DNA of 64,000 nt from Sphingobacteriia bacterium (GCA_021286705.1 JAJTBW010000001.1:9325-73324); one strand, 5' to 3'; positions 519 to 55,010 are shown, counted from the stretch's first letter. Numbers and translations: made by a program. The notes: a model not told the origin generated them from the sequence alone.

Positions 519-635
519 GCGGGGGCTGCTACGCAGGCGGGGATTGCTTCGCAAGCGGGGGCTGCTACGCAGGCGGGGATTGCTACGCAAGCGGGGGCTG
601 CTGCGCAGGCGGGGGCTGTTTCGCAGGCGGGAATT
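519..635. repeat. Tandem repeat, 18-bp unit x 6.5 (GCGGGGGCTGCTACGCAG alternating with GCGGGGATTGCTTCGCAA variants)
   Basis: Read directly. It fills the gap between the convergent stop codons at 516-518 (+) and 634-636 (-). Confidence 0.95.
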
Positions 636-2013
636 AGAATTTGCGTATTGGGATTTTGAGAGATTTAAGGAGGGCTAGGGTTGGCGTTTGGTTGTTGGTA
701 ATCAGGAAGTATCCTTCGAAGTTGGGGATTGGTGCAATAGATATTGTACTGTCGTTGGCGATATCACGGCCTCTGTCGATCAAGAGGATGGTATTAGCCA
801 CATTAGAAGCCTCCTCTTTCAGGCGCCAGGTGCGTCTTTCGTATGCAGGTCGGAGTGTTGGTGGAAAGTTCTCTTCGATCGAGGGTGAAGCATAGGTAAA
901 ATGGTCGTAAAACCAATGATTATTGACTACAACCAACTCTACATTTTTCTCTTTACAGAGTTGACCAAGCTTATGACTATCGGAGAGGAAGACTTCAATA
1001 TCAGCAACATTTACCACTGAATCCGATTTTTTATCCTTCGTGATAGTTGTTGGGAATAGATAGGCCTTATAGGCTAAAAAAGCTACCATCACCATTGGTA
1101 AATAGGGATAGATGGCCGCTCCTTTTATATTGAATCGACTGACAAGCAGTGCCAGTACAAGAGGAAGTCCTAGAAAAGCTCTGGAATAGGAGTAGAAAAC
1201 GGAGTCAGTGCCATCAAAAACCTTCGACATGGTCAGTGAGAAGAGGAAAACCAACAGAAACCCTATAGTGGCAATACCTTCAGGGAACCTCTTTTTATAT
1301 AAGAACCATACCGACGCCATTAATGGAAGCAGGAAATAGATTATTAAAGGGTGCACCATCATAGGGGTAACATTCTTGAACAGTTGAGGCATGTCGCCAA
1401 TAGCCCTGTATAGGTTATTCAAACTTATTATCAGTTTTATCTGGTGGAGGTTCTCGTTTGGATGTTCATAGTAGAAACTGTAAAACAGACCAACAATAAC
1501 TAAAGCAGGGATGGCTCCAAGTGATAAATAGATCCAGAATTTTCGCTCAGATAGATGTGTTATTGCATAATATAAAAAGATAGGCACCAGAATGAAAACA
1601 GAGCCTGTTCCTATTATTAATGCAACTATAGAGATAAAACCAAGCCATAGGTGTTTAACTGGTGTGCTTCTCCCTGTTAAACTGAATAATGCCAGCGTTC
1701 CTACAAAGAGGCCCCCAACCCATCCCCGGCTCAGAGAGGTAATGTAGTCGTACTCTACGGGCAAAATAAATGGAATTGCTATAACGAGGAGTGCTGTGGT
1801 GTATTGACCTCGCCGGTATAGCAACCACGTCATTATCAGAAAGGGCAATAGGGTTAAGACCGAGGTGATATAAGGTAAAACTAAATAGGCTTTTAATCCC
1901 ATCCAGAGAAATGGAACAGCTAGAAGAGACTCAAACATAGGATTATATGACTGTCCATAAAATCCTGGGGTGTGAAAACTCCCATTTGAATAATCAAATG
2001 CACCTAGACTCAT
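634..2013 (-). CDS. Polytopic membrane protein, GT-C-fold (family 39/83-like) glycosyltransferase candidate; 5' end probably disrupted
   Basis: 459-aa ORF with many hydrophobic segments. The same frame stays open 38 codons upstream of the ATG (to 2127). That extension encodes a TM helix plus FDSDEAI, the DE motif of the first loop in GT-C enzymes, but has no start codon. An ATG at 2153 is in a different frame. Confidence 0.5.
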
Positions 2014-3418: not shown

Positions 3419-3685
3419 GACTTTGTGACCGACAGACTTTGAGACAGGGAGACTTATTGAATGTTGAATGTTGAATTTTGAATAACTAGTCTTGAATCCT
3501 GACTGTTGAATTTTGAATCCTAAGGCTTGAATTTTGATCTTTAGTCTTGAATCCTGACTGTTGAATTTTGAATCCTAAGTCTTGAATTTTGAATAACAAG
3601 TCTTGAATCCTAAGTCTTGAATCCTAAGTCTTGAATTTTGAATAACTAGTCTTGAATCCTGACGTTTGAATATTGATTGTTGTGC
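3401..3685. repeat. Degenerate tandem-repeat region (GAGACTTTGAGAC units, then many TCTTGAATCCTAAG / TTGAATTTTGAATA units with ~60-bp higher-order periodicity)
   Basis: Read directly. It begins inside the last codons of the TerC-family gene and runs ~270 bp to just before the Crp/Fnr gene. Confidence 0.9.
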
Positions 3686-6486: not shown

Positions 6487-6652
6487 GAAATGGCGGATCG
6501 TAGACAATCTTTAGTAGTTAAAATGGCGGATCGTAGTCGATCTTTAGTGGTTGAAAGGGTGCATCGTAGTCGATCTTTAGTGGTTGAAAGGGCGCATCGT
6601 AGTCGATTTTTAGTAGTTGAAAGGGCGCATCGTAGGCGATCTTTAGTAGGTT
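6487..6652. repeat. Tandem repeat, 33-bp unit x 5 (GAAAGGGCGCATCGTAGTCGATCTTTAGTGGTT and variants)
   Basis: Unit boundaries read directly at 6487, 6520, 6553, 6586 and 6619. It starts 21 nt after the CPBP stop codon. Confidence 0.95.
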
Positions 6653-6689
6653 GACCGGGCTATTGCAATTTATGTTTTCTTAATAACTG

Positions 6690-8880: not shown

Positions 8881-11800
8881 CTAATTTAACAAAAAGAACC
8901 GGTTCTCAAATGGTTTGATAGTGGTGCTTGTATTCTTCATTTTCTCACCCAATGCATTAACAGGGGTGATCGTAATTCGTCCCCCATCTGGGTTGTAGAG
9001 TTCAAGGTTGGTGGTGATGCCTTCGGTCTCACGTACCTGTATTAGTGCCTTATTTCCTAGCTCATTGGGCTTTGCTGTTATAAGTGTGATGTTATCAGGC
9101 CAGCCGGATATCCAGGATGCCTCTGATCCCATCTCTTTGTTGTATTTGTCGTCTCCTCCTCCAGCAAAGACTCTTGCTTCGGGGGAGGTACAGATAGAGT
9201 TGCCCCAATTAACGGCATCTGTGCGGCTGTTCTTTCCTGAGGTGATGGAGTAGGAGAACTGCATGCCCCCACGTTGCTCGGCATTGAAGTTGGTCGTCCA
9301 ATAGTTGTTCATGGGCCACCCAAAGATATGGGTCGAGGCTGGCATGGCACCTGCCTGATATCGACCGGTATTGATGCCACCTGCCTGGATAAGTGGTGCC
9401 CCCGCGGAACTCAGTACAATCTGATCCTCTTTGTTGACCACCCTTACATATCGCTGCATTGTGTTCCAATCATTTGAGGAGCCTGCAATCTGATCTTTGC
9501 CGGCTATCATCTCTCCCCCGGCTACATCTATTGCAATCTCCCCATTGTTGCTCTTAAAGGGAAATGCTATGTAGACTCCCTCCGGCTCGGTGATCGATCT
9601 CTTGTTGAGCCTGTAGATAACGTCTATTCGTTTCTCGGTGTTAAATAGCCTATATTCGATCTCAAGCAGGCTACCCTCCATGCAAAGGGGCGTCTTTGCC
9701 TTAAAGATCACGGCATCCCAGATGTCACCTCGTTCAGTGCGGTCAAGCCAGATAGAGTCGGGTGTGTTTCTCCGGTAATCGGTCAGTCGGTACATCTCCA
9801 TCTGCTCACGGTTTCCGAGCTCCTCATGGATTACCTCGCCAAACTGCCAGCGACTTGTATCATCCAGAATTTCACGATCTAACTGTTTATCGTAGAGCCG
9901 GCTTATGGTTCCCCTGCTGGGGTCAAATGATATCTTATACCAGTTATTGACTATGGGCTTGCTTATGTCAAGTTTTAGGGACTGCCAGTTATCTAACGAA
10001 CCCACTTTTTCATTGAGGTAGATATTCAGTTTTTTAAATCCAAAGGGGGGCAGATCATGGCAATAGATGTTCCACATATCTCCGTCGGGGAAGGGCTCCT
10101 CCAGTTGGACCTCCACCTGATTATCTGCGTCATCGGCAATGATAAAAGGCTGGTATTTGGGAATGATCTGATGGTCAATATAGACCTTCGTTAAGCCACT
10201 CACTTGATTGCTCTGGGTGTTGAAGAGGTAGATCGTTGGGTCTTTCCCTCGTGAGAAGAGCGATTGTAGTTGACCAAGGGCCTCTTCTTTCAAGCTTGTT
10301 ACCCTTCGTTTGGCTTCCCATGCATACGACTCTTTGATGGCTCTTTGCTCGATTGTTTTAGGGTTCCAGGGCTCTTTTACGCTAGCATGTTTACGCTAGC
10401 ATGGTATCCTAAGGTGTGTTCGACATAGAAAAGCTGTGCTTTGATAGCCTCCTGACGCCTATTCTCCAGATCGGTTGGGAGCCAGGCATAGTTCAATAGA
10501 GCCATCGTGAAAAGACTCTGTATGGAGGCCAACTCAAATTGAGCCTCCCTGACTGCCTCTACCTCGCGGGTGGATGCCCCGAACCCATCCGTCCACCAGT
10601 CAGGCCAGGCACCCTTGATGACCGGTATCTCATCCTGATGTTTTGTGGCCATGGTGCTGAAGAAACCATCAACTGTGGAGGTGGTTAGCTTAGGCCAGCT
10701 ATATTTCTTGTTCCACTGCATGATCATCTCGGATGCAAGGGTGGAGGGAGGCGAATTATCGGTTTGGTATCCGGAGTGTTGTATGGCGATCATGTCGTAG
10801 GGGTATCCCTTCTCCTCCAGCTTAGTCAGGTATGAGAGAAGCTCTTCCTCGAAGATGTTAAAGTCGCCTGCATGGATCTTAAATAGGGTGTTGCCGGTCA
10901 TGTAGTGTTCGGCACGGAAGGTGAGGATACGGTTCCCTGAGGGCGACTCCCACCAGAAGAGCGTTGGCTTGTCGAAGCAGACCAGTGCCCTATGACCATG
11001 TGTCCCCATGTTGAGGTATTTGACCCCCATTTGAGGGAAGATATCAGCCATAGCCCAACCGATGCCGTTAACATCGTTCTGCATCGCCGATTCAACCTTT
11101 AGCCCCTCCGCTCGTATCGTAGCAATCGCCTGCATCGACTCCGCCAGGAGCCACTCATTGGGTAGCTCGTCGTAGTTCAGGTACATCCCCGTAAGGGCAA
11201 TCCTTCCCTCATTGACCCGCTGCTTCAGTCGCTTCACCTGTTCACTTGGCCTGGTTTTGATATACTCGGCTACCGCCCATGAGGTCTCACACGTCCATCG
11301 AAACTGAGCTTCCGAAGGCATCCCGTCTGTTAAATCGCAATAATCCAGAGCATAGTCGATATAACGCAGATGCTCGGCCAGGATATCCCCTTGGGGACGG
11401 GTATATCCGATGTCGGTATGCGAGTGCTGGATGAAGCTGACCTGCCATCTCTTGACGGGAGAGCGCTCAAGTTGTCCGCTCCAGATCTTTTCTCCCGCCT
11501 CGATACGATATGGCACCGAGGTGGTTTTTGTCACCAGTGGCACCGATATTTTAAGATAGTTATAGCCGAAATGGAGTGAATCCTCCGCTGTGAGGCTGTC
11601 GTTGATGAAGACTTTTACTCTGTTTGGCGCCCCATAGTGCATGATCCCGGCGATAGCCAGCTGGCGTTCGCCATTTTTGGTGGAGATAAGTGCGGGTAAG
11701 GCTTTGAAATTCAGCCCGTCGTTGAGCGGTAGCACATAGACGATATACCAGGAGCTTTTATTCTCTTTTCTACCGGTGACCTTGATGGTGATGGGTTGGC

Positions 11801-12329
11801 CTACCGTCAGTTCCGACGAGGGGAGGGTGAGGAACATAAATCCGAAGTGGTCGCCATATTGGTCGATCATATCTTTTTTGAACATCAGCGAGGCTCCGTT
11901 GCCATCATCCAGCACCCAGTGGTCGCTGCCATCGGTATAGAAGGTAAAACGTTTGACCCCTTGAACCTCGACATCGAAGGCCGCCTTGCCGGGTGAGGAG
12001 CCTATGGCCGCAAGCCAGGCGAAACAGACCTTTTTTGAGAGCGGTTTATTCGGAACCGGTGCCGACTGCCACTCTACTGCGGAGGTGCCATCGGTCGCCC
12101 TTGCCAGCAGACACTCACGAGCGATCGATATCGAGGAGTGGTAATTAAAGTCACTACCTGCGATCTTCTTCGCAAAGCCATTTACATAGCTGATCTCTTG
12201 CACAGCGTTCTGTTGTCCATAAAGAGCCAACGACAAGAAGATGAGCATGGTAGTAAAGGTGCGGCTTAACATAACGGTTCCGGTTTGAGATTTTGTGTGA
12301 AGGTTCAAAGATATTAATAACAAAAACAA
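8881..12329 (-). pseudogene. GH38-like alpha-mannosidase split into two ORFs (10377-12329 and 8881-10293) by a 14-bp tandem duplication
   Basis: The N-terminal ORF carries FIQHSHTDIGYT, a GH38-type HxHxD motif. Deleting one copy of the duplicated 14-mer fuses ...GYHASV to KEPWNPKTIEQRAIKESYAWEAKRRVTSLKEEALGQLQS, which runs straight into the second ORF. The likely native start is MLSRTF at 12272. Confidence 0.8.
10376..10403. repeat. Perfect tandem duplication of 14 bp (TTTACGCTAGCATG x 2) causing the frameshift in the mannosidase gene
   Basis: Read directly: copy 1 is 10376-10389 and copy 2 is 10390-10403. Confidence 0.95.
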
Positions 12330-12645
12330 AAAAGAGCATTTTACGGATAATGGTAAAATTATATCGGTTGCCAGCAGCCAGTAGCCAATCTCTTTTTTCT
12401 AACCATCACATTTCCAGTATCTCTGTGGTTCCTCTCTCATGATTGAGTCTACCCCGATCGGATAAAAAGATTGAGGCTTGATTGTATATTGAGATTTAAT
12501 TGAGATTATCACCGTACAAAGATTGTTCCAAAAAGTTTAACAACACTTTTGTCACTAGTTGATTTTTGTCCCCCATAAAAAAGATACAGGTCTCAGAAAA
12601 GCCTTATTTCATCAGGTTTAACGATAATCCCTTCATTTGAGAGAA

Positions 12646-12711
12646 ATAAGAGAAACATAAGAGAAACATAAGAGCGATATAAGAGGGATATAAGAGGGAT
12701 ATAAGAGAGAG
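12646..12711. repeat. Tandem repeat, 11-bp unit x 6 (ATAAGAGNNNN)
   Basis: Unit boundaries read directly at 12646, 12657, 12668, 12679, 12690 and 12701. Confidence 0.95.
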
Positions 12712-14310: not shown

Positions 14311-14889
14311 ATGAATAAAAATGAATTATTCACATTAACTGATCATCAAATCATTGAAAGCCTCATTCAAGGGAATAGTCAGGTAATTCAGTACTTATTT
14401 TATGAGAAATGTAGCTCCATGTTTGGCTACATTATCAAGGAGATTTTCTCATATAAAGTTGATAAGGATGAACTTGTCAATGAGCTTTATATTTATCTGA
14501 GTGAGGACAACTGGAAAAAAGTCAGGGAATTTGAAGGGCGTAGCAAGTTTACAACTTGGCTTTCAGTAATTTCAGTACGTTATTTCTGTAAGAAAAAGCG
14601 AGATAGGATAGATTTTGATCCAAGAAAAGCCCAAATAGATGAAGCAGCGAAACTTCCCAATACTACTAAGTTTGATAGTTTTGTATGTAATATGGATCTA
14701 TATGGCGCAATAAATAAATTGAAAAATCCCAGGGACCGTTTTGTCTTAATGTCATTAGAAATTCGAGAACAAACAGTTGAGGAGGTTGCTAAGGCACTTA
14801 ATATTTCCGTCGATAATTTGTACAATGTACGTAGAAGAGCAAAAAAACACCTGTCTAATATATTAACCGAATATAAATATGAAAACTAA
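14311..14889 (+). CDS. Sigma-70 family (ECF-like) RNA polymerase sigma factor
   Basis: 192 aa. Region-2-like segment is ELVNELYIYLSEDNWKKVREFEGRSKFTTWLSVISVRYF. Region-4 HTH is RDRFVLMSLEIREQTVEEVAKALNISVDNLYNVRRRAKKHL. Confidence 0.8.
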   Translation: MNKNELFTLTDHQIIESLIQGNSQVIQYLFYEKCSSMFGYIIKEIFSYKVDKDELVNELYIYLSEDNWKKVREFEGRSKFTTWLSVISVRYFCKKKRDRIDFDPRKAQIDEAAKLPNTTKFDSFVCNMDLYGAINKLKNPRDRFVLMSLEIREQTVEEVAKALNISVDNLYNVRRRAKKHLSNILTEYKYEN

Positions 14890-16135
14890 TAAATATATAT
14901 CAGAAGAGTTGTTGGCTGCTTTTATTGATGGAACTACGACTCAGGAACAGAACGATTATACTCTAGATGTTTTCAAGGACGATCCTGAACTATACAAAGA
15001 ATTTTGGATAGCCTATCTGGCAGCAAATTTGCCAGTAGGGGAGGATAGAACTCCTCATGAAAATAATGATACATCTTTTAATGGCAACATCCCTACTATA
15101 ATAGTAGGTGGTGGTATGGCTGCCGGATCACTGATCGGTAATGTGTTTGAGCACAGTCACATTCCAATGGTAGCAGTAAATAGTGATGAAAATAATTTTT
15201 TGGATGATAGATTAATGCATCACAATGACTCAATATCTGCAAACGATTTTACTCATCTGATGGAAATAGCAATTCATAAAGCACCAAATCAATTTGGAGA
15301 AGAGGCAAACAATTACGTTTCACCTAACGTAGATCAAGGATATAGTGATACCTGTGCTGTTCGCTCCCAACAATTAGTATTAAATGATTTTGGAATTCCG
15401 GTAACTCAAGAAGATTTAATTAAAGAGGCTACTCAACATGGTTGGTATACTCAAGGTGAAGGAACTCCTTTGGAGTATGTAGGAAATTTGCTTGAAAATC
15501 ACGGAGTGGAAGTCAATCGGTTTGAAAATGCCAATATCTTTAATTTGACAAATGAGTTAGCACAAGGTCATAAAGTAATTATTGGAGTTGATGCCAACGA
15601 GCTTTGGCATAACGGTTTTTGGCAACATGCTAAAGATTCGATAATCGGAGATACTCCTAATCATGCACTGATTGTTGCTGGAATAGATACCAGTGACCCT
15701 AAGCAAGTACAGGTCATTCTCGAAGACCCGGGAACCGGTGATGTGGCAAAAGCTTATCCTATGGAACAATTTCTGGATGCATGGAAGGATTCTCATTGCT
15801 TTATGGTTTCAACTCAAGAGCCAGCCCCACTAGCATTTAATCAGGAAACAATGATGGGTTTCGATTACGACAAAGGGCGTATTCAAAATTCAGAAACTCT
15901 TATGAGTAGTGTTGAAGACACCTATAGGATATCGGAATACCCCTCCATTGATCCTGAACCAACATTCCCAGAATTCGACCGCATAGATACAAATCATGAG
16001 CCGTCTCATCCCGGATATGTACCTATTAGTGAAGAATATGATCCACGCCATCCGGAATATAAAATAGATAAACACCACCCAGAAGATGATCATCATGATG
16101 ATTTAGATATTTCGCATTTAGACCATAATGTATAA
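14879..16135 (+). CDS. Anti-sigma-like N-terminus + hydrophobic segment + papain-like (C39-type) cysteine peptidase domain + His/Asp-rich tail
   Basis: It overlaps the sigma gene by 11 nt. The N-terminus ISEELLAAFIDGTTTQEQ resembles anti-sigma factors, and IPTIIVGGGMAAGSLIGNVF is a possible TM segment. Peptidase signature is Q-x5-C (DQGYSDTCAVRSQQ), NHALIVAGID (His) and ILEDPG (Asp). The tail is KHHPEDDHHDDLDISHLDH. Confidence 0.6.
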   Translation: MKTNKYISEELLAAFIDGTTTQEQNDYTLDVFKDDPELYKEFWIAYLAANLPVGEDRTPHENNDTSFNGNIPTIIVGGGMAAGSLIGNVFEHSHIPMVAVNSDENNFLDDRLMHHNDSISANDFTHLMEIAIHKAPNQFGEEANNYVSPNVDQGYSDTCAVRSQQLVLNDFGIPVTQEDLIKEATQHGWYTQGEGTPLEYVGNLLENHGVEVNRFENANIFNLTNELAQGHKVIIGVDANELWHNGFWQHAKDSIIGDTPNHALIVAGIDTSDPKQVQVILEDPGTGDVAKAYPMEQFLDAWKDSHCFMVSTQEPAPLAFNQETMMGFDYDKGRIQNSETLMSSVEDTYRISEYPSIDPEPTFPEFDRIDTNHEPSHPGYVPISEEYDPRHPEYKIDKHHPEDDHHDDLDISHLDHNV

Positions 16136-18098
16136 TACGAATATGACACAAGAAGAAATTAAACAAGAAACGACTTTATTGAGAGACAACATACTTTCAA
16201 TAATGAAAAAGATGATTGAACAAAAAGCGGGTAAATTTGGAGATAATCTGCCAGCTTATGATATCAGTTTTGAAGCAGCTTACAATTTACTTATTAAACC
16301 TGATTATAATTTAGTGATTAGTGGCGAAGTAAATAGGGGTAAAAGTACTTTGATTAATGCCATTATTGGTCGAGACATTTTACCAACTTATGATAAGGAA
16401 ACAACTTCACAAGTATTTAAAATTATCAATTCAAAAGTAGAATCTTTTTTCATTGTATTTGACAACGGTGATACACAGACAATCACAAAAGAGGAGCTAA
16501 AGCATTTTGGATCTCAAGTTGAAGCAAGCAATAGTATCAACAATGATTTAGGTAATAGAAGAATTGCTTACATACAAGTAAATACTCCAATTGAATTTTT
16601 ACCTGAAGGTGTTACAATTGTAGATACTCCGGGTATTGGCTCTACCTATAAACAACACTCTGAAATCACAAAAGGCTTTATGCAATATGCTGATTCAATA
16701 ATATATCTGTGCAGTGCCAAAAAGCCGCTTGAGATGACCGACATTAGTTTTATTAAAGACAATGTATTAAGCTTACATCATGTGCCGAGCATCATGTTTG
16801 TGATGTCAAAAGTAGATGAGGCTGATAGCGAGGATGCTTTAAAAGAACAAATCAAAAGAAGTGAAACTTTGATAAAAGAAAACTTTGAGGATAATATTGT
16901 GATTAACAAAACGATATTTCCTGTTAGTAGCATATTGTTGATAAAATCATCAAATGCAACCAACGACTGGAAACATCTTTATTATGATAATTCTTGTTTT
17001 GGAAAGATTAAAGAAGAAATTCAACTTTCAATTATTCGAACCCGTGGTCTTGAATGGTCTATTAATGGATTTAATGAATGTGTAAGATATTATAATAAAG
17101 TCTCAAATTCACTTAGTCAGCACATTGATTTATTTGATAAAACTGTAAATGCCCAAAATGCTACTTTCAAATCAGTGGAAGCCAATAGAGCCAAATTTAT
17201 GTCTGATATGGGGCCTCTAAAAAGTAAAAAAATTCTGGACGATATTGCCAATCTACTAAATGCAATTAAACCTCACATGAGAAAGGAATGTAGTCTGAAT
17301 GGTAATATATATCAAAATTATATTGATAAAATTAAATCAGAATTGAGGTCTGATATGAGTCAGGAAGATATAAATGAATATGCCAATCAATTACAAGAAA
17401 ATGTTATTTCAGACATTACAGATAAATGGAATGAACTCTGTAAAGTTGCAAATGACCAGGTTTCTACCTTATTACAGGAATACAGTCACGAATGTAGCAG
17501 ATACGCAGATGATTCATATACAATAAGCAATACAAATATTGATTTAAAGATTGATATTTCACCATCAAATAGGGAATATATTCAAGGAATTCGTTCTCAA
17601 TACCTTAATGCAATGTTTGTTTGTAATGCCGCAACATTACTTGGAAGCTTAGTTTTTGGCCCCGTTGGTCCAGTTATTTGGGTAATTGCGAATATCGGGC
17701 CTATTTTATATGGAGCTATTTTTGGCAGAAAAGAAGCAAAAGAAAAAGCATTCATTAAAGTTCAAAAAGATATTGAAGACTATTTGAGAAAAATTATACA
17801 TGGTGCAGAAAATCAGCTTTTTGAAGTATCTGTTTTTGATGGTAAATATCAATCAACTGTTGATGCATTTGTAAAATCTATGTATCAATTCTCAGAAAGT
17901 ATGATTAAAGAAACATATAAAAAATGTGAGGAAGAGCTGATTGAAAACGAGAAGAAGGTAAAGGAAATAATTTCCGGTATTGATCCTTCAAAAAAGACTG
18001 TACTCGTTAATCTTCTGACAATATGGAAAGAGTTCGGAAAAAATCTTCAGAGCAACTCTGAAACTTTGAATAAGTTGAATCAAATTATGTTTGCTTAA
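16128..18098 (+). CDS. Dynamin-like GTPase 1 (bacterial dynamin-like protein) with C-terminal hydrophobic hairpin
   Basis: G1 is GEVNRGKSTLINAIIG, G3 is VDTPGIGS and the G4-like motif is MSKVD. A long helical region follows. The hydrophobic segment AATLLGSLVFGPVGPVIWVIANIGPILYGAIFG resembles a BDLP paddle or membrane insertion. Confidence 0.8.
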   Translation: MYNTNMTQEEIKQETTLLRDNILSIMKKMIEQKAGKFGDNLPAYDISFEAAYNLLIKPDYNLVISGEVNRGKSTLINAIIGRDILPTYDKETTSQVFKIINSKVESFFIVFDNGDTQTITKEELKHFGSQVEASNSINNDLGNRRIAYIQVNTPIEFLPEGVTIVDTPGIGSTYKQHSEITKGFMQYADSIIYLCSAKKPLEMTDISFIKDNVLSLHHVPSIMFVMSKVDEADSEDALKEQIKRSETLIKENFEDNIVINKTIFPVSSILLIKSSNATNDWKHLYYDNSCFGKIKEEIQLSIIRTRGLEWSINGFNECVRYYNKVSNSLSQHIDLFDKTVNAQNATFKSVEANRAKFMSDMGPLKSKKILDDIANLLNAIKPHMRKECSLNGNIYQNYIDKIKSELRSDMSQEDINEYANQLQENVISDITDKWNELCKVANDQVSTLLQEYSHECSRYADDSYTISNTNIDLKIDISPSNREYIQGIRSQYLNAMFVCNAATLLGSLVFGPVGPVIWVIANIGPILYGAIFGRKEAKEKAFIKVQKDIEDYLRKIIHGAENQLFEVSVFDGKYQSTVDAFVKSMYQFSESMIKETYKKCEEELIENEKKVKEIISGIDPSKKTVLVNLLTIWKEFGKNLQSNSETLNKLNQIMFA

Positions 18099-18100
18099 TT

Positions 18101-19303
18101 ATGGCCAGGCTAAGTATAGATTTTGGAACATCGTACTGCGCGGCGGCCTGGCTTTCACCTGAATCGGGAAAGCCGGAGGCCATTTCATTTGGAGCCGACG
18201 AATATAATAACAATAAATACTATAAATTTCCTTCAGCATTGATTTATGCAAAAGATCAGGCTGGAAATGAAGACGTTATAGTGGGCAAGCAAGCATACAA
18301 TCAAATTATTTCAGGGAAATCGTGCAAAAATGTTTGTTACAAGATTAAATCAGAGATGCGACCTCAAGTAACAAGACAGATAAATGGTTCACCTAAGAGA
18401 TATGAACAGATTGTAGCTGATTTGTTTAAGGCTATAAAGAAAAGAGCCTCTGATTCATGCAAACAGGATTTTGAAGAAGTAACGATCACACATCCTGCAA
18501 ACTTTGAATATCAGCAGTTATTAATTGATGCTGCTGATATAGCAGGTTGGCCTGAAAACAAAGTAACATTACTGGAAGAACCCATTGCTGCAATTTATGG
18601 TTTCTCTATAAATCAACAGATACCAGATAACTCTGGATTAGTTGTATTTGATTACGGTGGAGGGACAATAGATGTTACATATTTATTTAAAAAATCGAAT
18701 AATGAGTTTAAATGGTTCTTCCCTCCTAAAGGTGAATCAAAGTGTGGTGGTGAATATATCGACTTAGAGCTTTATCGTTACTTCTGCAAGCTTGCTAAAT
18801 TAGAAATGTCCGATTTAATCAACTATGAGTTATTAAATAAATGTCGGGCTATTAAAATAAATTTTTCCACGGATCAATTTTTAACTTCAGATAGGATTAG
18901 TATAGGAGACACCATTTATGCAATAAGTCGAAATAAGTTCAATGAACTAATCCAAATAAAGACTGATAGAGCAATTGATGTATTATCCAAAGTACTACAA
19001 GAATGTAAAAATCAAGATAAAACAATTGATTATTTATTGCTAAACGGGGGAAGTTCAAAGCTCCCAATCATCAAAGAATCTATTTTGAAACTTGGCTTTA
19101 ATGAAGATCAATTGATCTCATTTGATGGAGAGGATATTGCTGTAGCTTTAGGAGGAGTCGCAAAATATATTGAAAATTCTCAGAATAAAACAACGCTTAA
19201 GGAGAAAGAAAATATAAGTAAATTAGTCCATAATCAAAGAGTTAGTGACTTAAAATTTAAAGATCCAATATTTGATAATTTTAATTTTAGGAAAAAGATA
19301 TGA
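18101..19303 (+). CDS. Hsp70/actin-fold ATPase (nucleotide-binding domain only, no substrate-binding domain)
   Basis: Phosphate-1 is LSIDFGTSYCAAAW, phosphate-2 is VVFDYGGGTIDVTYL and the adenosine motif is LLLNGGSSKLPIIKE. The protein ends at 400 aa. Confidence 0.75.
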   Translation: MARLSIDFGTSYCAAAWLSPESGKPEAISFGADEYNNNKYYKFPSALIYAKDQAGNEDVIVGKQAYNQIISGKSCKNVCYKIKSEMRPQVTRQINGSPKRYEQIVADLFKAIKKRASDSCKQDFEEVTITHPANFEYQQLLIDAADIAGWPENKVTLLEEPIAAIYGFSINQQIPDNSGLVVFDYGGGTIDVTYLFKKSNNEFKWFFPPKGESKCGGEYIDLELYRYFCKLAKLEMSDLINYELLNKCRAIKINFSTDQFLTSDRISIGDTIYAISRNKFNELIQIKTDRAIDVLSKVLQECKNQDKTIDYLLLNGGSSKLPIIKESILKLGFNEDQLISFDGEDIAVALGGVAKYIENSQNKTTLKEKENISKLVHNQRVSDLKFKDPIFDNFNFRKKI

Positions 19304-20238
19304 ACATATTAATGGTAGGACATAGTTCGTCCGGGAAAACAAGTTATATGGCGGGGTTGTACAGCATTTTTGGCGATGACAAAGATGGTATTGGTATTAC
19401 AACATATGACCAAGCAAAAAATAAAAGATTAAAAATGATCGCACATGATATTCGATTAGGGAAGTATCCTACGAGTACAGATATAGCATCGGAATATAAT
19501 TTTCATTTAACAATTAATGGAGATTCTATCATCCCTTTTAATTGGTATGATTACCGTGGTGGAGCATTATCTCAATCCTCGAAAAATTCGCCTGAAGTTG
19601 CGGCTCTTGTAAATAAGATTTGCGAAGCAAATGCCTTAATTGTTTTTCTGGATGGTGAGAAGATTGTTCAAAGTACAGACGATGAATTAGAAGAAGAATA
19701 TGAAATATTATTGTGGGCTATTCAGAAATCAATTGGATCAAAAAATAATAATAATTATTTCCCTATATCTTTTGTTATGACAAAAGGAGATCTCTATGAT
19801 GATTATTCTGTTTTATATGAATCTAATGGGCTTGACTATTTTATGCCATTAATCAAAAACATAAAAGATGGTAAAGCAGCAGCTGGTATGGTTACTGCAT
19901 GTGAAGTATCTTCAGGTGGTATTTATAATATTTTTCCTCCTCTTCTATTTTCTTTGTATTATGGAATGTCAGATTACATAAAAAAACGAATTAATTATTT
20001 GAATTCTGAAATAGAGTCTTACAATAAACTATGGCCAAATCTATTAGATGATATTTTTGGTGAATTGTCAGAAATATTTGGCAGTGGCAGTTATAAAACT
20101 GATCGACAGCAAGCGAGGGAGTCAATGGCAAAGATTCAGCAAGAAAAAAACAATTTGGAACTATTGGAGTCTTGTCAGAAAGGGATGAAAGAACAGATTG
20201 ATTCTTGGGTCGAAGAAAATGTTATTCTTGCTTTTTAA
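19300..20238 (+). CDS. Small P-loop GTPase A (TRAFAC-like) with C-terminal coiled coil
   Basis: Walker A is VGHSSSGKTSYM, the DxxG-like motif is WYDYRGG and the NKxD-like motif is MTKGD. There is a 4-nt ATGA overlap with the upstream gene. Confidence 0.65.
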   Translation: MNILMVGHSSSGKTSYMAGLYSIFGDDKDGIGITTYDQAKNKRLKMIAHDIRLGKYPTSTDIASEYNFHLTINGDSIIPFNWYDYRGGALSQSSKNSPEVAALVNKICEANALIVFLDGEKIVQSTDDELEEEYEILLWAIQKSIGSKNNNNYFPISFVMTKGDLYDDYSVLYESNGLDYFMPLIKNIKDGKAAAGMVTACEVSSGGIYNIFPPLLFSLYYGMSDYIKKRINYLNSEIESYNKLWPNLLDDIFGELSEIFGSGSYKTDRQQARESMAKIQQEKNNLELLESCQKGMKEQIDSWVEENVILAF

Positions 20239-20271
20239 AATATCAATAGTTAATATAAAAAAGACATTAAA

Positions 20272-21279
20272 ATGAGACAAATAAGTATAGTTGGATTAAG
20301 GGGCTCAGGTAAAACATGTTACATTTACGCAATGAGCAAAACAATGATGAGAGGTATTAACAGTATATCAATTAACCCTATTGATGACAATCTATACAAT
20401 CAACTAAGAGAAGGATGGAGAAAAATTAAAACTGAAAGAAAATGGCCTGAAAATAGTGATAGAGTGACAAAATGTGAGTTTACTTGCTTTGTTCAATTAA
20501 GACCAGTAATGGATTTTTGTTGGGATGATTATAAGGGAGGTTCTTTGACAGGATTGGATACAATAAGCGCGAAAGAGCGAGAGGAGTTTTATAATTCGTT
20601 ATCTATATCGGATGGAATTATATTCTGTGTTCCTGCCGACACAATAATTGAGGCATTGGAAGGTGATGATGATGCTCAGGATGATATCAACATGCTCAAT
20701 CGATTTATTCTTCAATATGCAAGTAAGAATTCATTAAAAGGAATACCTATTACTGTTGCAATAACTAAAAGTGATTTATTAGATAAAGAAGAGTTATCAA
20801 TAGCATTTCAAGTAGTGAAAAAAACTTTAAACAACTTATTTGCCAAAGGAACTAATGTTTCTGCATTACTCGTCCCAATTTCATTAGGCTCGAATTTGAA
20901 AGGCTTACCTGGAGGTGAAATTACTGGAACAATAAATATGGATCCTAAAGCTGGAAATATTCATTTACCTGTATTATTCAATCTTTATTTTATGTTATTG
21001 GAACAAATTGGCGAATTTAGTAATAATCTAAAATCTCTAAGATCACAGCTTTCAAATGTCAATAGCACTATTAATATGGGAACAAATATGAGCGCATTAA
21101 AAAGATGGTGGGAAGGCATTGATGTTGATTACTTACAAAAGAATAAAGCAGAAATAGAAAAATCTATTGAACAAAAAGAGACGGAACTTAAAGGAATCAG
21201 AACTGATCTTGAAAAAATCAAATCTGAATTTGGAAGTGAGTGTGAGTATTATGATAATGGAGACAATAAACAATTTTAA
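20272..21279 (+). CDS. Small P-loop GTPase B, paralogue of GTPase A
   Basis: Same motif series in the same order: VGLRGSGKTCYI, WDDYKGG, ITKSD, and the shared P-x-LF-x-LY segment. It ends in a C-terminal coiled coil. Confidence 0.65.
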   Translation: MRQISIVGLRGSGKTCYIYAMSKTMMRGINSISINPIDDNLYNQLREGWRKIKTERKWPENSDRVTKCEFTCFVQLRPVMDFCWDDYKGGSLTGLDTISAKEREEFYNSLSISDGIIFCVPADTIIEALEGDDDAQDDINMLNRFILQYASKNSLKGIPITVAITKSDLLDKEELSIAFQVVKKTLNNLFAKGTNVSALLVPISLGSNLKGLPGGEITGTINMDPKAGNIHLPVLFNLYFMLLEQIGEFSNNLKSLRSQLSNVNSTINMGTNMSALKRWWEGIDVDYLQKNKAEIEKSIEQKETELKGIRTDLEKIKSEFGSECEYYDNGDNKQF

Positions 21280-21282
21280 CAC

Positions 21283-22608
21283 ATGAAGTTATTTATTTAT
21301 ACGAGAACCTATAAAGACGATTATAGGCTTATTGCAAGTCCAAATGAGTCTTATTTACCCGAAAATATCTTATGGGCTTTTATAGCCTTTTCTAGAGATG
21401 TGATTAATATTGAAAATCCATTATATGGTGATTTCAAACTTGCGAGATGGTCAATTTATAAATATTATGATTACGTACTATTTGGGATTGGATGTAAAAA
21501 TATAGAATTAAGCGAACACTCTAATGACAAAGTTGGTAGACCTGTTAGAGGATTTTTTGGAGTTGTATTGAAGTTAACTGAGGAAACAAACATTCTTCCT
21601 TTTGATCTACAATATTTTAAAGACATTTATAGATGTTTCATTTCTCCACATTGGGAAGAACGAAATTTTATGCTCAACGATATTGATTGTTTATTAGATA
21701 TCTCTAGATATAATCATCTACCTCCTTCTAATATGCAGTTATTAAACAACATGGTTCTCAAAACAAAATTTTTTCAATACAATAACAAATTAGAGAATTA
21801 TTTAGCCTCATGTCTAAATTATAGCATATGCAATATCGTCACCGGCATTAATGTTGAAGAACACGCAATTGAAGCTGGTTTTATGAATGCATTATCATTT
21901 GATACAATAGAAGAGAAAATTGTTGATAATTCAAAAAAGAAAGAGCAATTAACGAGTCAGAATAAAGTTGTTGTAACTAAAGAAAAAAAGATTCAAAACA
22001 ATAATATCCTATCTGGTTCATCTAAACATTTGATGAAAAATATAATTGCACAAGCAATAGAGACATTGAATCCTTTCTCAAGTTCAAAATCACAACGTCA
22101 TTTTAAAAATCAAGAAATTGATTTAAATATTGAGGATTCTAATAGTAAAATATCAAGAGTTACAATAAATGATGAACCCATTTTAACAACAAAAGACACA
22201 GACGATGAAAATATTGAGCTTCTTCGCCAAGCCTATAAAGAAAACAAACTAAATAAAAATGCACAAGAAGGAGCATTCAATACAGATGCGACAATTGATA
22301 TCAGGAATGATATGTTATCGCTTAAAAATAATGTGGCTGAAAAACAAGAACAGATTAACATAGATAGTTTCGATATAGGATTAATGAGACAAAATATCAA
22401 TACAACAGATAATTTTTCCGATGAAAATACTTCTTTTGATGATCTCCAAGAGATAACACCTGGAAAACAAATTTCAGAAAAATATAGAGAAATATTGTCT
22501 GAGCTTAAATCTTCTATTTCATCAATTGATGACTACAGCATTTCTTCTGAAAAATATATAGAGATAGAAGGTCTGGTAAAAGAATTGATTACTAAAATCA
22601 AAAGTTAG
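21283..22608 (+). CDS. Hypothetical protein (441 aa): ~200-aa N-terminal globular part + N/K/S/D-rich low-complexity C-terminal half
   Basis: The ORF is tightly spaced within the operon, 3 nt after the upstream stop. I recognise no motif. Confidence 0.55.
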   Translation: MKLFIYTRTYKDDYRLIASPNESYLPENILWAFIAFSRDVINIENPLYGDFKLARWSIYKYYDYVLFGIGCKNIELSEHSNDKVGRPVRGFFGVVLKLTEETNILPFDLQYFKDIYRCFISPHWEERNFMLNDIDCLLDISRYNHLPPSNMQLLNNMVLKTKFFQYNNKLENYLASCLNYSICNIVTGINVEEHAIEAGFMNALSFDTIEEKIVDNSKKKEQLTSQNKVVVTKEKKIQNNNILSGSSKHLMKNIIAQAIETLNPFSSSKSQRHFKNQEIDLNIEDSNSKISRVTINDEPILTTKDTDDENIELLRQAYKENKLNKNAQEGAFNTDATIDIRNDMLSLKNNVAEKQEQINIDSFDIGLMRQNINTTDNFSDENTSFDDLQEITPGKQISEKYREILSELKSSISSIDDYSISSEKYIEIEGLVKELITKIKS

Positions 22609-22615
22609 TACAAAT

Positions 22616-24196
22616 ATGGATTATATCTTTTCCACTAAATCAGTATTATCCGAGTTCATTCAATTTATAAAAGAGTCTCCTTGGGTTAATGATTATTCAA
22701 TTCAACTACAACAACTTTTAAGTGGAATAGACGAGCCATGTCGGTTAGCCATTGCAGGAAGAGTAAAAGCCGGTAAAAGTTCTCTTGTAAATACTTTATT
22801 GGGAGGCGATTTTGCAAAAGTTGGTGTAACAGAAACAACAGCTACTATCAATATTTTCAAGTATGGCACCCCTCCTGATAGTGATTTTCCAATACAGTGT
22901 TGTTATGTCGATGGACATAACGAGTGGGTCTCGAAAATCTTTTTGGATTCTTTACAAGGCACTTCAGAAGATAGTTTGACGAAAGTTAGTGAAATCAAGC
23001 ACCTTGTTTATTTTATAAATGATGCCAGACTACAGGATATAATTTTGATTGATACTCCTGGGACGAATGCTGTAGTTGATGAACATCAAAATCAAACTGA
23101 GCTATATTTTGGATTGAGAAGAAGGCATAATTCTGAAACTATCGAACTTACAAACAGTGCCGATGCGGTTATCTATCTTCTTGGAGAAGTGGCTCATGAA
23201 TCAAATCAGGATTTTTTAAGCAATCTAAACGAAACGCTTGGGCAAAGAGCAAACATAAATACTTTAGGTATTATGTCGCAAATTGATCTATCAGACGATC
23301 GTTTGTACAACAAAAAGGAACGAACGATAGATCTGCAGCTCAGATTGTCAAACTATATATCCTCTGTTGTCCCAATCTCGGCTGGTTTAAAGTATTTTTT
23401 GCCAGACAGAAAGGAAGCGGAAAGAATGAAGTCCGTATTAATGCTGTTCAACTCAGAGGAAAACCTAATGAATTGCCTGGAGATGGAAACAATATATATG
23501 ATGCCAACTTTGCCCGGAATTCAGGTTTCATTGGAAGAAAGAAAATCCATTCGTCATTTAGCAGAAGGAATGCCATGGCGAGTATTTGTTGTAATCGCTC
23601 GTGAACTTTATAAACACGACGTTGACTCAGCATTGCGTATTTTAGAAGATTATTCTGGTATAGAGCGCTTAAGAAATGTACTAAACAAACAGTTTTTCGA
23701 AAGAAGTAAAATCCTGAGATGCAACAATGTGGTTGAGAAATTATGCGAAATTCTAAACAACATATTGAAATATGGTGGGTTGGAAAAACTTCGTGAAGAA
23801 GCAAGCATCAAGGATCGTTGTTTAAACGAATGTAGTAATCTGTCCACAGAAATCTCAGTTGTTTTAAAGAGCATGATAGAAAAGCATATGAAATCAGCTC
23901 AATATTTAAAAGACACAGAAACTGAGCTAATAAAAATTAAAGAACAGGTTTTAAAAATCAAACAGGAAACAGAGCGGATAAACAATGATTTCTATTGCCT
24001 CCAACTCCTTTGCGACAACAAAGGCATTTTTAAGTCTGAAGAACTCGAGGAGTTATCAGAGCTATTGTCATACAATACAAAAACGGTAAAATGCAATGAT
24101 CGGAGAGAGTATTGGCAAGATTTAAGTTATCGTTCTATTTCCGAGATTAAGCAAACCATTGCTGAAAGAGCTTATCAAAAATATGATGAACTTTAA
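22616..24196 (+). CDS. Dynamin-like GTPase 2
   Basis: G1 is AGRVKAGKSSLVNTLLG, G2 region is VGVTETT, G3 is IDTPGTNA and the G4-like motif is MSQID. A long helical C-terminal half follows. Confidence 0.75.
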   Translation: MDYIFSTKSVLSEFIQFIKESPWVNDYSIQLQQLLSGIDEPCRLAIAGRVKAGKSSLVNTLLGGDFAKVGVTETTATINIFKYGTPPDSDFPIQCCYVDGHNEWVSKIFLDSLQGTSEDSLTKVSEIKHLVYFINDARLQDIILIDTPGTNAVVDEHQNQTELYFGLRRRHNSETIELTNSADAVIYLLGEVAHESNQDFLSNLNETLGQRANINTLGIMSQIDLSDDRLYNKKERTIDLQLRLSNYISSVVPISAGLKYFLPDRKEAERMKSVLMLFNSEENLMNCLEMETIYMMPTLPGIQVSLEERKSIRHLAEGMPWRVFVVIARELYKHDVDSALRILEDYSGIERLRNVLNKQFFERSKILRCNNVVEKLCEILNNILKYGGLEKLREEASIKDRCLNECSNLSTEISVVLKSMIEKHMKSAQYLKDTETELIKIKEQVLKIKQETERINNDFYCLQLLCDNKGIFKSEELEELSELLSYNTKTVKCNDRREYWQDLSYRSISEIKQTIAERAYQKYDEL

Positions 24197-26097: not shown

Positions 26098-27228
26098 ATG
26101 AGAAATGAAGTAAATGTAAATAACGACATGCTAACCTGGGCTATTGCCCGGGCTGGCTATGATGTGCCTGCATTTGCCGAAAAGTTTCCGAAAATATTAG
26201 ATTGGCTCAAAGGGCAAAAGAAGCCTACCGTAAAGCAACTTGAAGATTTTTCTAAAAAAGTTTATCTCCCTTTTGGCTATCTTTTTTTGCCACAGCCACC
26301 GCAAGAAAGAGTTCCTATTCCTTTTTTCCGCACAAACGGAAATCAGGCAGACAGAATCAGCATAAATTTGTATGATACAATTTTGCTACTGCAACAAAGG
26401 CAGGATTGGCTGAAAAATTATTTACAAGATAATGATTTTCAGCGTTTACCTTATGTTGGTAAATTTCGAAATAGCAATGATGTAAATGCCATTGTAGCAG
26501 ATATTCGCCTAACATTACAATTACCTGAAAATTGGGCAAGTCAATTCAGAACATGGCAGGAAGCTCAAGACCATTTGGTTTTGCATATTGAAGACAAAGG
26601 AATTATTACCATATTTAACGGAATAGTCGAAAACAATACACACAGACCTATTCTAGTTGACGAGTGCAGAGGTTTTGTTTTAGTGGACGAGTATGCTCCG
26701 TTCATGTTCGTGAACAATAGCGATTTTAAATCTGCACAGATGTTTACCATTGTCCATGAGTTGGCTCATATATGGACTGGTCACAGTGCAGGTTTCGATT
26801 TCCGCAGATTGCAACCTGCTAATGACCCAATAGAAATTCTTTGCGACAAGGTGGCTGCTGAATTTTTAGTTCCTGAGCAGGAATTTAATGAAGTGTGGAA
26901 TCACAGTCCCAATAATTTCACTTATGCTTCTCGATATTTTAAAGTAAGTGAAATTGTAATTGCCCGTAGAGCATTAGACACGGGAATAATCACTAGACCA
27001 CAGTTTTTTGATTTTTATGAGGAATATTCTAACCGTGAATTTGCAAAAAAAGAAAGACAAGGCTCTGGAGGTGATTTTTACGCAACAACGAAAAAGCGAA
27101 TCAGTATCACATTTGCCAGTCATGTAAATCAGGCAGTAAAATCTGGCAATTTATTATTTCGTGATGCCTATAAACTTACGGGCTTAAAAGGCGACACGTT
27201 TGAATATTTCTTCTCTAAACACCTATAG
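26098..27228 (+). CDS. ImmA/IrrE-family (DUF955) zinc metallopeptidase with N-terminal HTH-like region
   Basis: It has an HExxH motif in FTIVHELAHIW and is 376 aa long. It is followed immediately by a DUF4411-like gene, a known gene pairing. Confidence 0.7.
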   Translation: MRNEVNVNNDMLTWAIARAGYDVPAFAEKFPKILDWLKGQKKPTVKQLEDFSKKVYLPFGYLFLPQPPQERVPIPFFRTNGNQADRISINLYDTILLLQQRQDWLKNYLQDNDFQRLPYVGKFRNSNDVNAIVADIRLTLQLPENWASQFRTWQEAQDHLVLHIEDKGIITIFNGIVENNTHRPILVDECRGFVLVDEYAPFMFVNNSDFKSAQMFTIVHELAHIWTGHSAGFDFRRLQPANDPIEILCDKVAAEFLVPEQEFNEVWNHSPNNFTYASRYFKVSEIVIARRALDTGIITRPQFFDFYEEYSNREFAKKERQGSGGDFYATTKKRISITFASHVNQAVKSGNLLFRDAYKLTGLKGDTFEYFFSKHL

Positions 27229-28668: not shown

Positions 28669-28992
28669 ATGAAAATTGAATTTGAGTACGACTATTTGCG
28701 CGAATTGTACGAAGAAGGAAAAGCATCGGGCAAACGATATAGGTTCCAGTCAGGGGTAATTAATCAGTATATTAAAACGGTGAGCATTCTGATGAAAGAA
28801 CCTGATACTGAGTCCTTGTATCAATATAAGAGCCTTCATTATGAACGAAAACATGGTAATCTACACGGCATCGAAGCAGTATATGTAAATAAGCAATACA
28901 GGCTTGAGTTTCGGAGTCGGTCAGAAGGCAAGGAACCAAATGTCATAACTATTTGTTCATTGCTAGATTTGAGCAACCACTATAAAAAATGA
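28669..28992 (+). CDS. higB: HigB-like (RelE/ParE superfamily, killer-protein type) toxin
   Basis: 107 aa. The pattern ...LHYERKHGNLHGIEAVYVNKQYRLEFRS...LSNHY matches the HigB killer-protein family. It overlaps the downstream antitoxin gene by 4 nt. Confidence 0.65.
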   Translation: MKIEFEYDYLRELYEEGKASGKRYRFQSGVINQYIKTVSILMKEPDTESLYQYKSLHYERKHGNLHGIEAVYVNKQYRLEFRSRSEGKEPNVITICSLLDLSNHYKK

Positions 28993-30104
28993 CACACATG
29001 GAAACAAAAGAGTACATCCCATTTAAGGCAATACACCCTGGACTTATCATTAAAGATGAACTGGATGCCCGAGGAATTTCTCAAAAAGAATTTGCGCAGG
29101 ATATTGGTATGCAAACAACTATGCTCAATGAAATTATTAAAGGTAAGCGAGCTATAACTGCCGAAATAGCGTTGGTCTTGGAAAAAGGTTTAGGAATAAA
29201 AGCTGCTTCATGGATGCGCCATCAGGTAGGTTATGAATTGGACTCTGTTCGTATTAAGGAACGTAACATCCTTAAAATTCAGCAAATGGAGACTTGGAGT
29301 ATTATTAAGCAATTTGTTCCGGTTTCGGCTTTCTCAAAACTTGGGTTGTTGTCAAATTCACTAGCTGATAATATTGCACGCATCTGGGATATTTACAATG
29401 TAGATTCTATCGACCTTTTAGTTCAACGGGTTTCTGTAAATAAATGCAATGAGTATTATAAAAAGTCGGAGAAGTTAAAAAGCGACCAAGTAAATATCAT
29501 GGGTTGGAGCCAGTTAGTACGTTGGCAAGCCACTTCAATTAAGGTAAATGTATTTAGTCCTGATAACCGTGATGTTATAATTACCGAATTAAAAGAGGTT
29601 ATTCGAGCCAACAAAAATGTTGTAAGGTATACGCAGGAAGTACTCCATAAATATGGAATAAAATTTTTGGTACAGGAACGATTTAAACAATCTCCAATAG
29701 ATGGCTATTCTTTTTGGAGTAGTGAGAATCCAACCATTGTTGTTACAATGCGTAAAAAATTCCTCGATAATTTTGCATTTACAATAATGCATGAGTTAGG
29801 CCATGTTTTCACTCATCTTGTGGCAGATAAAAATGTAGATTTCTTAGATATAGAATACCCAAATAGATCATTGTCAGTTAAGGAACAGGAAGCACACCAT
29901 TTTGCTCAACAATGTTTTTTAAAAGATGCTACTTGGAACGAATTTTTTAGCCGAAACATAAAATTCTCTTATCCCTCAACTGAAAAGGAAATGGTTCAGT
30001 TGGCCGTCAAAGAGAAAATCCACCCCAGTATAATTCTAGGAAGATACTGTTTTGAAACTCGTAATTTTGCTATCAAAACAAGCATTGATCGTACAATCAG
30101 TTAG
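28989..30104 (+). CDS. higA: HigA-like XRE-HTH antitoxin fused to ImmA/IrrE (DUF955) metallopeptidase domain
   Basis: N-terminus is HPGLIIKDELDARGISQKEFAQDIGMQTTMLNEIIKGKRAITAEIALVLEKGLG (HigA HTH). The C-terminal part has the HExxH motif MHELGHVFTH. Confidence 0.7.
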   Translation: MTHMETKEYIPFKAIHPGLIIKDELDARGISQKEFAQDIGMQTTMLNEIIKGKRAITAEIALVLEKGLGIKAASWMRHQVGYELDSVRIKERNILKIQQMETWSIIKQFVPVSAFSKLGLLSNSLADNIARIWDIYNVDSIDLLVQRVSVNKCNEYYKKSEKLKSDQVNIMGWSQLVRWQATSIKVNVFSPDNRDVIITELKEVIRANKNVVRYTQEVLHKYGIKFLVQERFKQSPIDGYSFWSSENPTIVVTMRKKFLDNFAFTIMHELGHVFTHLVADKNVDFLDIEYPNRSLSVKEQEAHHFAQQCFLKDATWNEFFSRNIKFSYPSTEKEMVQLAVKEKIHPSIILGRYCFETRNFAIKTSIDRTIS

Positions 30105-39061: not shown

Positions 39062-39093
39062 TAGGTAGTTTTAAAAAAGTAACTATTGGGTTT

Positions 39094-40107
39094 CTATTCT
39101 TTATTTAGTTGAATTGATGCTTTTTGCAGTAAGAGTATCTTTTCAGTTAGATTGGATGGAGAGATTATTTTAATACTACCAGCAAATGAAAGAATCAGGC
39201 TTTCTAACTCATAGTTTATTTGTAAAAGTAGCTTAACTTCTAGGGTTTCTCTGTCTAACCATTTGGCTTTTTGAGAACCATGAATAGGTTTGGTTAGAAT
39301 ATAATGGCCAGTGATTCCCTTAAAGTGGAGTATAACCTCTTCCAAAGGACTATTCTCAGGTTTGGTGACACCAATGAAATCATCAAAATATTCTGACCAG
39401 TTTATGTTTCGATTAGGTTTGAAAGTATCAGATGAATCAGAACAGTTGTCAATTCGATCAATTGCTAGATTCCAATCTTCTTTGTTTTTTGTAGTGTTTA
39501 AACCATATACAAACCATCTGTTGTTATACTGTTTAAGGAAATAGGGATGAAATTGTATCACCGAAATTTTATCTTCATTATAAGGTTTGTATTCAATCCT
39601 TAAGACCTTTTTATATATGATTGCATTGTGAATTTTAGGCAAGTTTTCAAGCCCTTTTAGGTACGGGTTATTGTCGAAAGAGATCACTTGTTCTTGGTTA
39701 GGAATGCTTATTTGGTGATTAATTTTTGTTAGGATCTCTTCGAATCCGATAAACTGTGGCATCCCACTAAAATGAGAAAGTATTTCGGCTGCAGTTTTTA
39801 GGTTATTTAGTTCAACTTCGTTTAGTGGGAGGTTGTTAATAGAGAAAGAGAGGTCAGAATATCTATAGAAGACCTTATTGCCATCTCGAGTTTTAAGCAG
39901 ATCAATTTGCCAACCTTCAGAACTTTCCATGAAGAGAATATCATTATAGATTTGTCTTCGGCTAATTCCTCTGGAATTTGGATTTCTTTCGATAAGAGTT
40001 CTGGAACAAATCTCGACTAAGTCATCTATGCAATAACGTTTACCGGGATTCCTGAAGCAGTTGTCCAGGATCTTATATCGTAGAAAAGCATCTTTGTTTA
40101 TAGACAT
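39094..40107 (-). CDS. WYL-domain transcription regulator candidate
   Basis: 337 aa. The N-terminal wHTH-like segment is YCIDDLVEICS...SRRQIYNDILFME. The WYL-type core is IQFHPYFLKQYNNRWFVYG. It is divergent from the cassette leading into the cas operon. Confidence 0.6.
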   Translation of the reverse strand: MSINKDAFLRYKILDNCFRNPGKRYCIDDLVEICSRTLIERNPNSRGISRRQIYNDILFMESSEGWQIDLLKTRDGNKVFYRYSDLSFSINNLPLNEVELNNLKTAAEILSHFSGMPQFIGFEEILTKINHQISIPNQEQVISFDNNPYLKGLENLPKIHNAIIYKKVLRIEYKPYNEDKISVIQFHPYFLKQYNNRWFVYGLNTTKNKEDWNLAIDRIDNCSDSSDTFKPNRNINWSEYFDDFIGVTKPENSPLEEVILHFKGITGHYILTKPIHGSQKAKWLDRETLEVKLLLQINYELESLILSFAGSIKIISPSNLTEKILLLQKASIQLNKE

Positions 40108-43156: not shown

Positions 43157-43159
43157 ACT

Positions 43160-44626: not shown

Positions 44627-44631
44627 CAATT

Positions 44632-48565: not shown

Positions 48566-48567
48566 TC

Positions 48568-50883: not shown

Positions 50884-50917
50884 GGTTCTTTTAAATGTTT
50901 TCTGTCTGTTCGTTATA

Positions 50918-50963: not shown

Positions 50964-50993
50964 AAGCTTTATGTTTTTCTTTTAGTTGATTTT

Positions 50994-52094: not shown

Positions 52095-52096
52095 TT

Positions 52097-55009: not shown

Positions 55010-55010
55010 T

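Follow-up and report, generated by a model that had tools for sequence, protein, structure and literature searches.

In a Sphingobacteriia bacterium, a perfect 14-bp tandem duplication divides a conserved GH38-like (alpha-mannosidase-like) gene into two open reading frames (ORFs), and the interrupted gene is probably a genuine, very recent loss-of-function allele. The window analysed here, a stretch of DNA of 64,000 nucleotides, derives from a metagenome-assembled genome (MAG), in which the gene lies on a contig of 75,769 bp. All close relatives carry a single copy of the 14 bp and an intact gene, which points to an ordinary, very recent knockout or, less likely, an assembly error. Taken as such, the lesion is an ordinary fresh frameshift by tandem duplication, with no new mechanism.

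A 14-bp tandem duplication and two gene fragments

On the plus strand, the unit TTTACGCTAGCATG stands in tandem at 10376-10389 and 10390-10403 (...GGGCTCT TTTACGCTAGCATG TTTACGCTAGCATG GTATCC...). The copies are 100% identical, so the perfect duplication claimed in the original prediction is indeed present. The repeat can be extended by no base to the left or right, Tandem Repeats Finder reports it with a period of 14, 2.0 copies and 100% matches, and no third occurrence of the 14-mer was found on either strand of the 64-kb window. Perfect tandem duplications of at least 14 bp are expected ~0.0009 times per 64 kb (analytic estimate from the window composition), and tandem units of 12-20 bp arose 0.01 times per window in Markov-1 simulations (n = 100). 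The duplication is therefore an event, biological or technical, rather than a coincidence. One other perfect repeat of this length is present, at 3598, within an intergenic repeat region of the TTGAATC type. The k-mers that tell the two states apart are the two-copy junction GCTAGCGTAAACATGCTAGCG and, set against it, GGATACCATGCTAGCGTAAAAGAGCC.

The minus strand holds two ORFs at this locus, one running from 12329 or 12272 to 10377 and the other from 10293 to 8881, with the following features:

8881..12272, minus strand: whole ancestral GH38-like gene; with one copy removed, 3378 nt, 1125 aa plus stop
10377..12272, minus strand: N-terminal fragment, 631 aa (NCBI MCE1166474.1, LWX70_00090)
10390..10403, minus strand: copy 2 of the 14-bp unit, the first copy on the coding strand, read ..HASV(N)
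10376..10389, minus strand: copy 1 of the 14-bp unit, coding strand CATGCTAGCGTAAA, the second copy there
8881..10293, minus strand: C-terminal fragment ORF, 470 aa from TTG (NCBI MCE1166473.1, LWX70_00085)

The upstream ORF terminates in ...TLGYHASVNMLA, where the copy at 10376-10389 is read as ..MLA with the TAA stop at 10377-10379; its translation bears out the previously described ending GYHASVNMLA-stop. Deletion of one copy yields a single open frame from TTG 12329 to 8881, which reads ...GYHASVKEPWNPKTIEQRAIKESYAWEAKRRVTSLKEEALGQLQS... across the junction and reproduces exactly the earlier count of 3435 nt, or 1144 codons plus the stop. The ATG at 12272 is the likely true start, giving a protein of 1125 aa that opens with the signal-peptide-like sequence MLSRTFTTMLIFLSLALYG. 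The N-terminal piece annotated at NCBI starts at this same ATG, and the predicted structural model has a helix at residues 2-19; alternative TTG starts upstream of the 631-aa fragment lie at 12323 and 12329.

The 631-aa fragment comprises the signal peptide, an N-terminal beta-sandwich, the GH38N domain (278-550) and helices one and two of a helical bundle. What is left of the third helix falls to the 470-aa fragment, together with the complete C-terminal set of beta domains and, among these, the GH38C match. Over 10294-10389, as far as the duplication, the ancestral frame is open but contains no start codon, and the first ATG, GTG or TTG of the downstream frame is a TTG 28 codons past the break. 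NCBI names MCE1166474.1 and MCE1166473.1 separately as 'hypothetical protein [Sphingobacteriia bacterium]', not as one frameshifted pseudogene.

Protein family, predicted fold and position of the break

The repaired protein, translated with one copy removed, matches the Pfam family PF01074 (GH38N) over residues 278-550 with 110.2 bits (cut-off 25, E 1.5e-31) and PF07748 (GH38C) over residues 769-918, wholly downstream of the frameshift, with 31.7 bits (cut-off 25). Searches of the PDB by sequence and profile and comparison with the NCBIfam models gave no relevant match to the repaired protein. Modelled with AlphaFold2 on the basis of 34 family members (pLDDT 80.5, pTM 0.74), the repaired protein has a signal helix, a beta-sandwich region (~28-270) and an alpha/beta domain (277-550) in its N-terminal half, followed by long helices at 568-593, 602-618 and 633-665 and then by beta domains at 675-1124. 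The model thus follows the GH38 fold order of alpha/beta domain, three-helix bundle and beta domains. In a Foldseek comparison with the PDB, the top 40 matches were all GH38 alpha-mannosidases, the best being Streptococcus pyogenes 2WYH (E 3.8e-34, TM 0.69 on the target, 13% identity). Given the Pfam GH38N and GH38C matches and the Foldseek matches to GH38 enzymes, the label 'GH38-like' is justified at the level of domains and predicted fold, in agreement with the original description; an alpha-mannosidase activity of this divergent clade is putative.

The repaired protein has its domains, their predicted order and its predicted fold in common with the CAZy GH38 enzymes (S. pyogenes SpGH38, 2WYH; Drosophila Golgi mannosidase II, 1HTY), but it is only 10-14% identical to the solved enzymes, which were found by fold search only, and carries in addition an N-terminal beta-sandwich of ~250 residues. 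More than 2600 homologues of the repaired protein were found, a family of ~1120 aa proteins that combine the GH38 fold with this extra N-terminal region. Among the best 120 of them, nearly all are 1106-1152 aa long with a query coverage of 92-100%, one is a partial sequence of 1042 aa, and the source names, where given, are Bacteroidales, Bacteroidetes/Bacteroidota, Prolixibacteraceae or Maribellus. More than 100 full-length homologues have 1110-1150 aa and span 97-100% of the repaired protein. All 34 family members share H285 and D287 (in HSHTD), D400 (in MQNDVNG) and H619 (in EHTxGxH). By motif analogy, H285/D287 would correspond to the HxD metal ligands of GH38 enzymes, H619 to a distal His ligand and D400 to the Asp nucleophile. 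The product of the gene appears to be secreted. The GC content of the gene is 0.43-0.51, compared with 0.31-0.39 in its surroundings.

The frameshift falls after V627 (numbering from the ATG start), within the motif F615-Y616-x-E618-H619-T620-x-G622-x-H624-x-S626-x-x-E629-P630, which is among the best conserved of the family, its named residues being invariant in 34 sequences. In the model, the break is located in the loop that links helix 602-618 to helix 633-665, ahead of the beta domains at 675-1124. The 631-aa product lacks the third helix and every beta domain, ~44% of the protein, and loss of function would be the natural reading of such a truncation; this product is most likely inactive or unstable.

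Intact relatives, genomic surroundings and age of the lesion

Nine full-length alleles (1142-1144 aa) from the 90%-identity protein cluster of the repaired protein are 97.6-98.7% identical to it at the amino acid level and align without gaps over 1141-1144 residues; judged by this similarity, they apparently come from the window's own species. The same cluster includes three further full-length alleles with 92.5-93% identity and one 808-aa member with 90%; the alignment of the repaired protein with protein P0001 (93% identity) is also gap-free. At the DNA level, the comparison covered contigs L003, L004 and L085-L088, six in all and drawn from different samples; they are 96.2-97.7% identical to the window, and on the strength of this nucleotide identity they are taken as belonging to its species. 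All six lack exactly the 14 nt, and L003, which encodes the protein P0125, carries the exact single-copy DNA GGATACCATGCTAGCGTAAAAGAGCCC. The six contigs and the window have a common downstream gene order of the GH38-like gene, a 521-aa protein, DUF4440, Rce1-like, beta-lactamase-like, cNMP-binding and TerC. The more distant orthologues L001 (90% nucleotide identity) and L002 (72%) show the 14-nt gap as well. In the GTDB species representatives, relatives of the protein are encoded at 112 loci; 80 of these were retained, and most of them match it over nearly the full length. All homologues examined are single ORFs of ~1110-1150 aa. Orthologues naturally split at this position had been named as an observation that would speak against a frameshift; none was found among the homologues examined, and the close alleles (nine of nine) are uninterrupted.

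Several searches addressed further occurrences of the allele. The two-copy or one-copy junction pattern had no match in the GTDB representative genomes or the JGI metagenome contigs, and the two-copy junction alone had none in the JGI metagenome contigs. By exact look-up, the 470-aa and 631-aa fragments were found in one NCBI MAG only and the 650-aa form nowhere; contigs encoding the 470-aa and 648-aa forms are not on record, nor is an exact copy of the neighbouring 521-aa protein. The collections searched contain no second assembly of the window's strain.

The surroundings of the gene differ in several respects between the window and the close contigs. A segment of ~1.75 kb (636-2391), located between the TerC and PocR/PAS histidine kinase genes, is absent from the close contigs; it includes a 459-aa ORF (634-2013, minus strand) without a Pfam match, an 18/36-bp GC-rich repeat lies at its border (518-631), and clear terminal inverted repeats were not found at the insert. 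Copy number also varies in a 33-bp minisatellite at 6487-6654 (5 copies; a repetitive ORF of 56 aa overlaps it) and in a TTGAATC-based 7/21/35-bp repeat region at 3457-3676. Upstream of the GH38-like gene, a non-coding stretch of 2 kb contains an array at 12639-12710 that repeats every 11 bp (GAGAGATATAA-like, ~6.5 copies), in which no indel was seen between the window and the close contigs. Beyond it, a same-strand block at 14311-24196 encodes a sigma-70 region-4-like protein, a C39-like peptidase, two dynamin-family GTPases, an HSP70-like protein and two DO-GTPase proteins, and has the appearance of a defence island; in the close contigs, other genes (DUF4062, DDE transposases) flank the GH38-like gene on the corresponding side.

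Between the GTPase block and a CRISPR-Cas locus lie further genes of defence or mobile-element type (26098-27228, 28989-30104 and 37619-40107), encoding two IrrE/M78-peptidase proteins, one of them with HTH_3, an SF1 helicase (AAA_30/UvrD_C_2) and a divergently oriented WYL-domain protein. The CRISPR-Cas locus consists of a type III-like cas cluster (42488-56496) with Cas6b, a Cas10 palm domain, several RAMP proteins, two tandem Card1-type CARF nucleases (50994-53302), Cas1, a BT4734-like_N protein and Cas2, located upstream of a very large array of ~100 units with the 37-nt repeat CTGAGGAACCCTCTTCCAGAATAATAAGGATTAAGAC, which spans 56620-64000 and runs past the end of the window.

Within ~11 kb of alignment to the relatives, no coding region contains an indel apart from the 14-nt insertion, the remaining indels all being minisatellite or intergenic. 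An alignment of eleven alleles revealed one amino acid change private to the repaired protein of the window, the conservative I448V upstream of the break, and none downstream of it; each of the other intact alleles has 0-5 private changes in the same alignment. Downstream of the break, dN/dS is 0.09-0.21 relative to the close relatives and 0.15 relative to the relative with 90% nucleotide identity. By these measures selection downstream of the break is not relaxed, and the earlier impression that no other decay is visible stands, with I448V as the one private change. The sole coding indel in ~11 kb, the single private change upstream and the unchanged dN/dS together indicate a very recent event. 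An old pseudogene was rejected on account of the zero private downstream changes and the unchanged dN/dS; the frameshift is either extremely recent or not real.

Competing readings and meaning of the allele

Were the frameshift not real but an artefact of assembly, merging or polishing, the organism would be single-copy and intact, and the extra copy would have come from the end-to-end joining of contigs that overlap by 14 bp, from gap closing or from a consensus step. The origin of the window in a MAG, the restriction of the two-copy allele to this MAG in the collections searched and the total lack of further decay, which is also expected of an artefact, are all compatible with such an error. 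We nevertheless consider it unlikely. With a single coding indel in ~11 kb relative to close relatives, the assembly is not generally indel-prone, and zero other coding indels over this length argue against an error-prone assembly. The density of mismatches to the relatives shows no abrupt change at the duplication junction; relatedness to other strains is thus steady across it, there is no sign of a join between contigs of two strains, and a chimeric strain join at the duplication was rejected. The site also lies inside the 75.8-kb contig, 10 kb or more away from its nearer end. As is generally known, de Bruijn assembly with k > 14 outputs a path only if the reads contain its junction k-mers (here …GTAAA/CATGC…). 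If a standard assembler of this kind was used, the requirement for reads with the copy would argue against an artefact.

Two readings would leave the locus with a function. An evolved on/off switch, in which the population gains and precisely loses the 14-bp copy and thereby toggles the enzyme by phase variation, is very improbable. Exact reversion of a perfect tandem duplication is possible in principle, and there is a precedent in the pneumococcal capsule genes: the passages of PMC4022640 and PMC4243769 that refer to Waite et al. (2001, 2003) describe reversible spontaneous duplications in those of serotypes 3, 8 and 37. As described there, a perfect duplication within the ORF of cap3A, cap8E or tts knocks the gene out and its precise loss restores it, and the same would apply here. 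The pneumococci, however, are described in those passages as presenting both states, many independent duplications and reversion in cultures, whereas here there is one occurrence and the relatives are all single-copy. Nine of nine close alleles and six of six close DNA loci have one copy, with no further duplication nearby, and the unit is a unique 14-mer in two copies rather than a hypermutable simple-sequence tract. Moreover, the site belongs to an invariant motif of the catalytic region rather than to a leader prone to repeats, and an apparently secreted glycosidase offers no evident reason for bet-hedging. If true, a switch would extend phase variation by spontaneous duplication to a carbohydrate-degrading enzyme of an uncultured environmental Bacteroidota.

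Still more improbable is a locus that remains functional, either because the two pieces reassemble or because frameshifting or ribosome hopping restores the full length. The N-terminal piece does retain the entire GH38N domain, the two copies offer identical take-off and landing codons, and past the duplication the downstream frame is open. Against this, none of the orthologues is split here, the next downstream ATG, GTG or TTG comes only 28 codons after the break, one of the three bundle helices is removed by the break, and a product restored by frameshifting would gain residues inside the invariant motif. A reading of the sequence before the stop reveals no canonical slippery heptamer; the absent slippery site and the unsplit orthologues speak against programmed -1 frameshifting, and the single ORFs of all homologues examined speak against a naturally split gene. 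Two other candidates were examined and set aside: nothing at the site supports the footprint of an excised transposon with a leftover 14-bp target-site duplication, and Rfam, promoter and terminator scans around the gene gave nothing relevant to a regulatory explanation.

Of the three options raised originally, a null allele, a reversible switch and an artefact, the evidence favours the first and lends no support to an evolved switch. Under this preferred reading of a genuine null allele, an error of replication or repair would have duplicated the 14 nt CATGCTAGCGTAAA of the coding strand in the sampled lineage or population. The borders of the duplication lack microhomology, for which reason simple slippage is not obvious. 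A palindrome, GCTAGC, is present in the unit, and the duplication may have originated by template switching or by repair synthesis. The resulting +14 shift would end translation five codons later (…GYHASV-NMLA*), leaving a 631-aa product with the predicted catalytic alpha/beta domain and without the third helix and ~500 residues of beta domains. The 470-codon frame, which has its TTG start only 28 codons past the break, would probably yield no useful translation product. As with any perfect tandem duplication, exact removal of one copy could restore the gene, but there is no sign that the cell exploits this as a switch. We infer that slippage or template switching was the cause, that the enzyme is inactive and that the reads support the duplication.

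The lesion fits the known class of null alleles caused by short tandem duplication, in which a unique coding stretch is repeated head to tail in a length that is not a multiple of three and leads within a few codons to an early stop, while relatives have the intact single-copy sequence. Nothing essential sets the window case apart from such alleles; it is notable for its freshness, with no secondary decay, and, unlike a called pseudogene, its halves stand in the public record as two 'hypothetical proteins'. The significance of the finding is chiefly one of annotation and quality control: the adjacent entries LWX70_00085 and LWX70_00090 together make up a single GH38-like gene and merit a flag as a frameshifted pseudogene, or correction should reads contradict the duplication. 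A real allele would provide a clean snapshot of the first step of gene loss in a natural population. The strain would then lack an enzyme kept under purifying selection by all its close relatives, a loss that may reflect the availability of substrates in its habitat.
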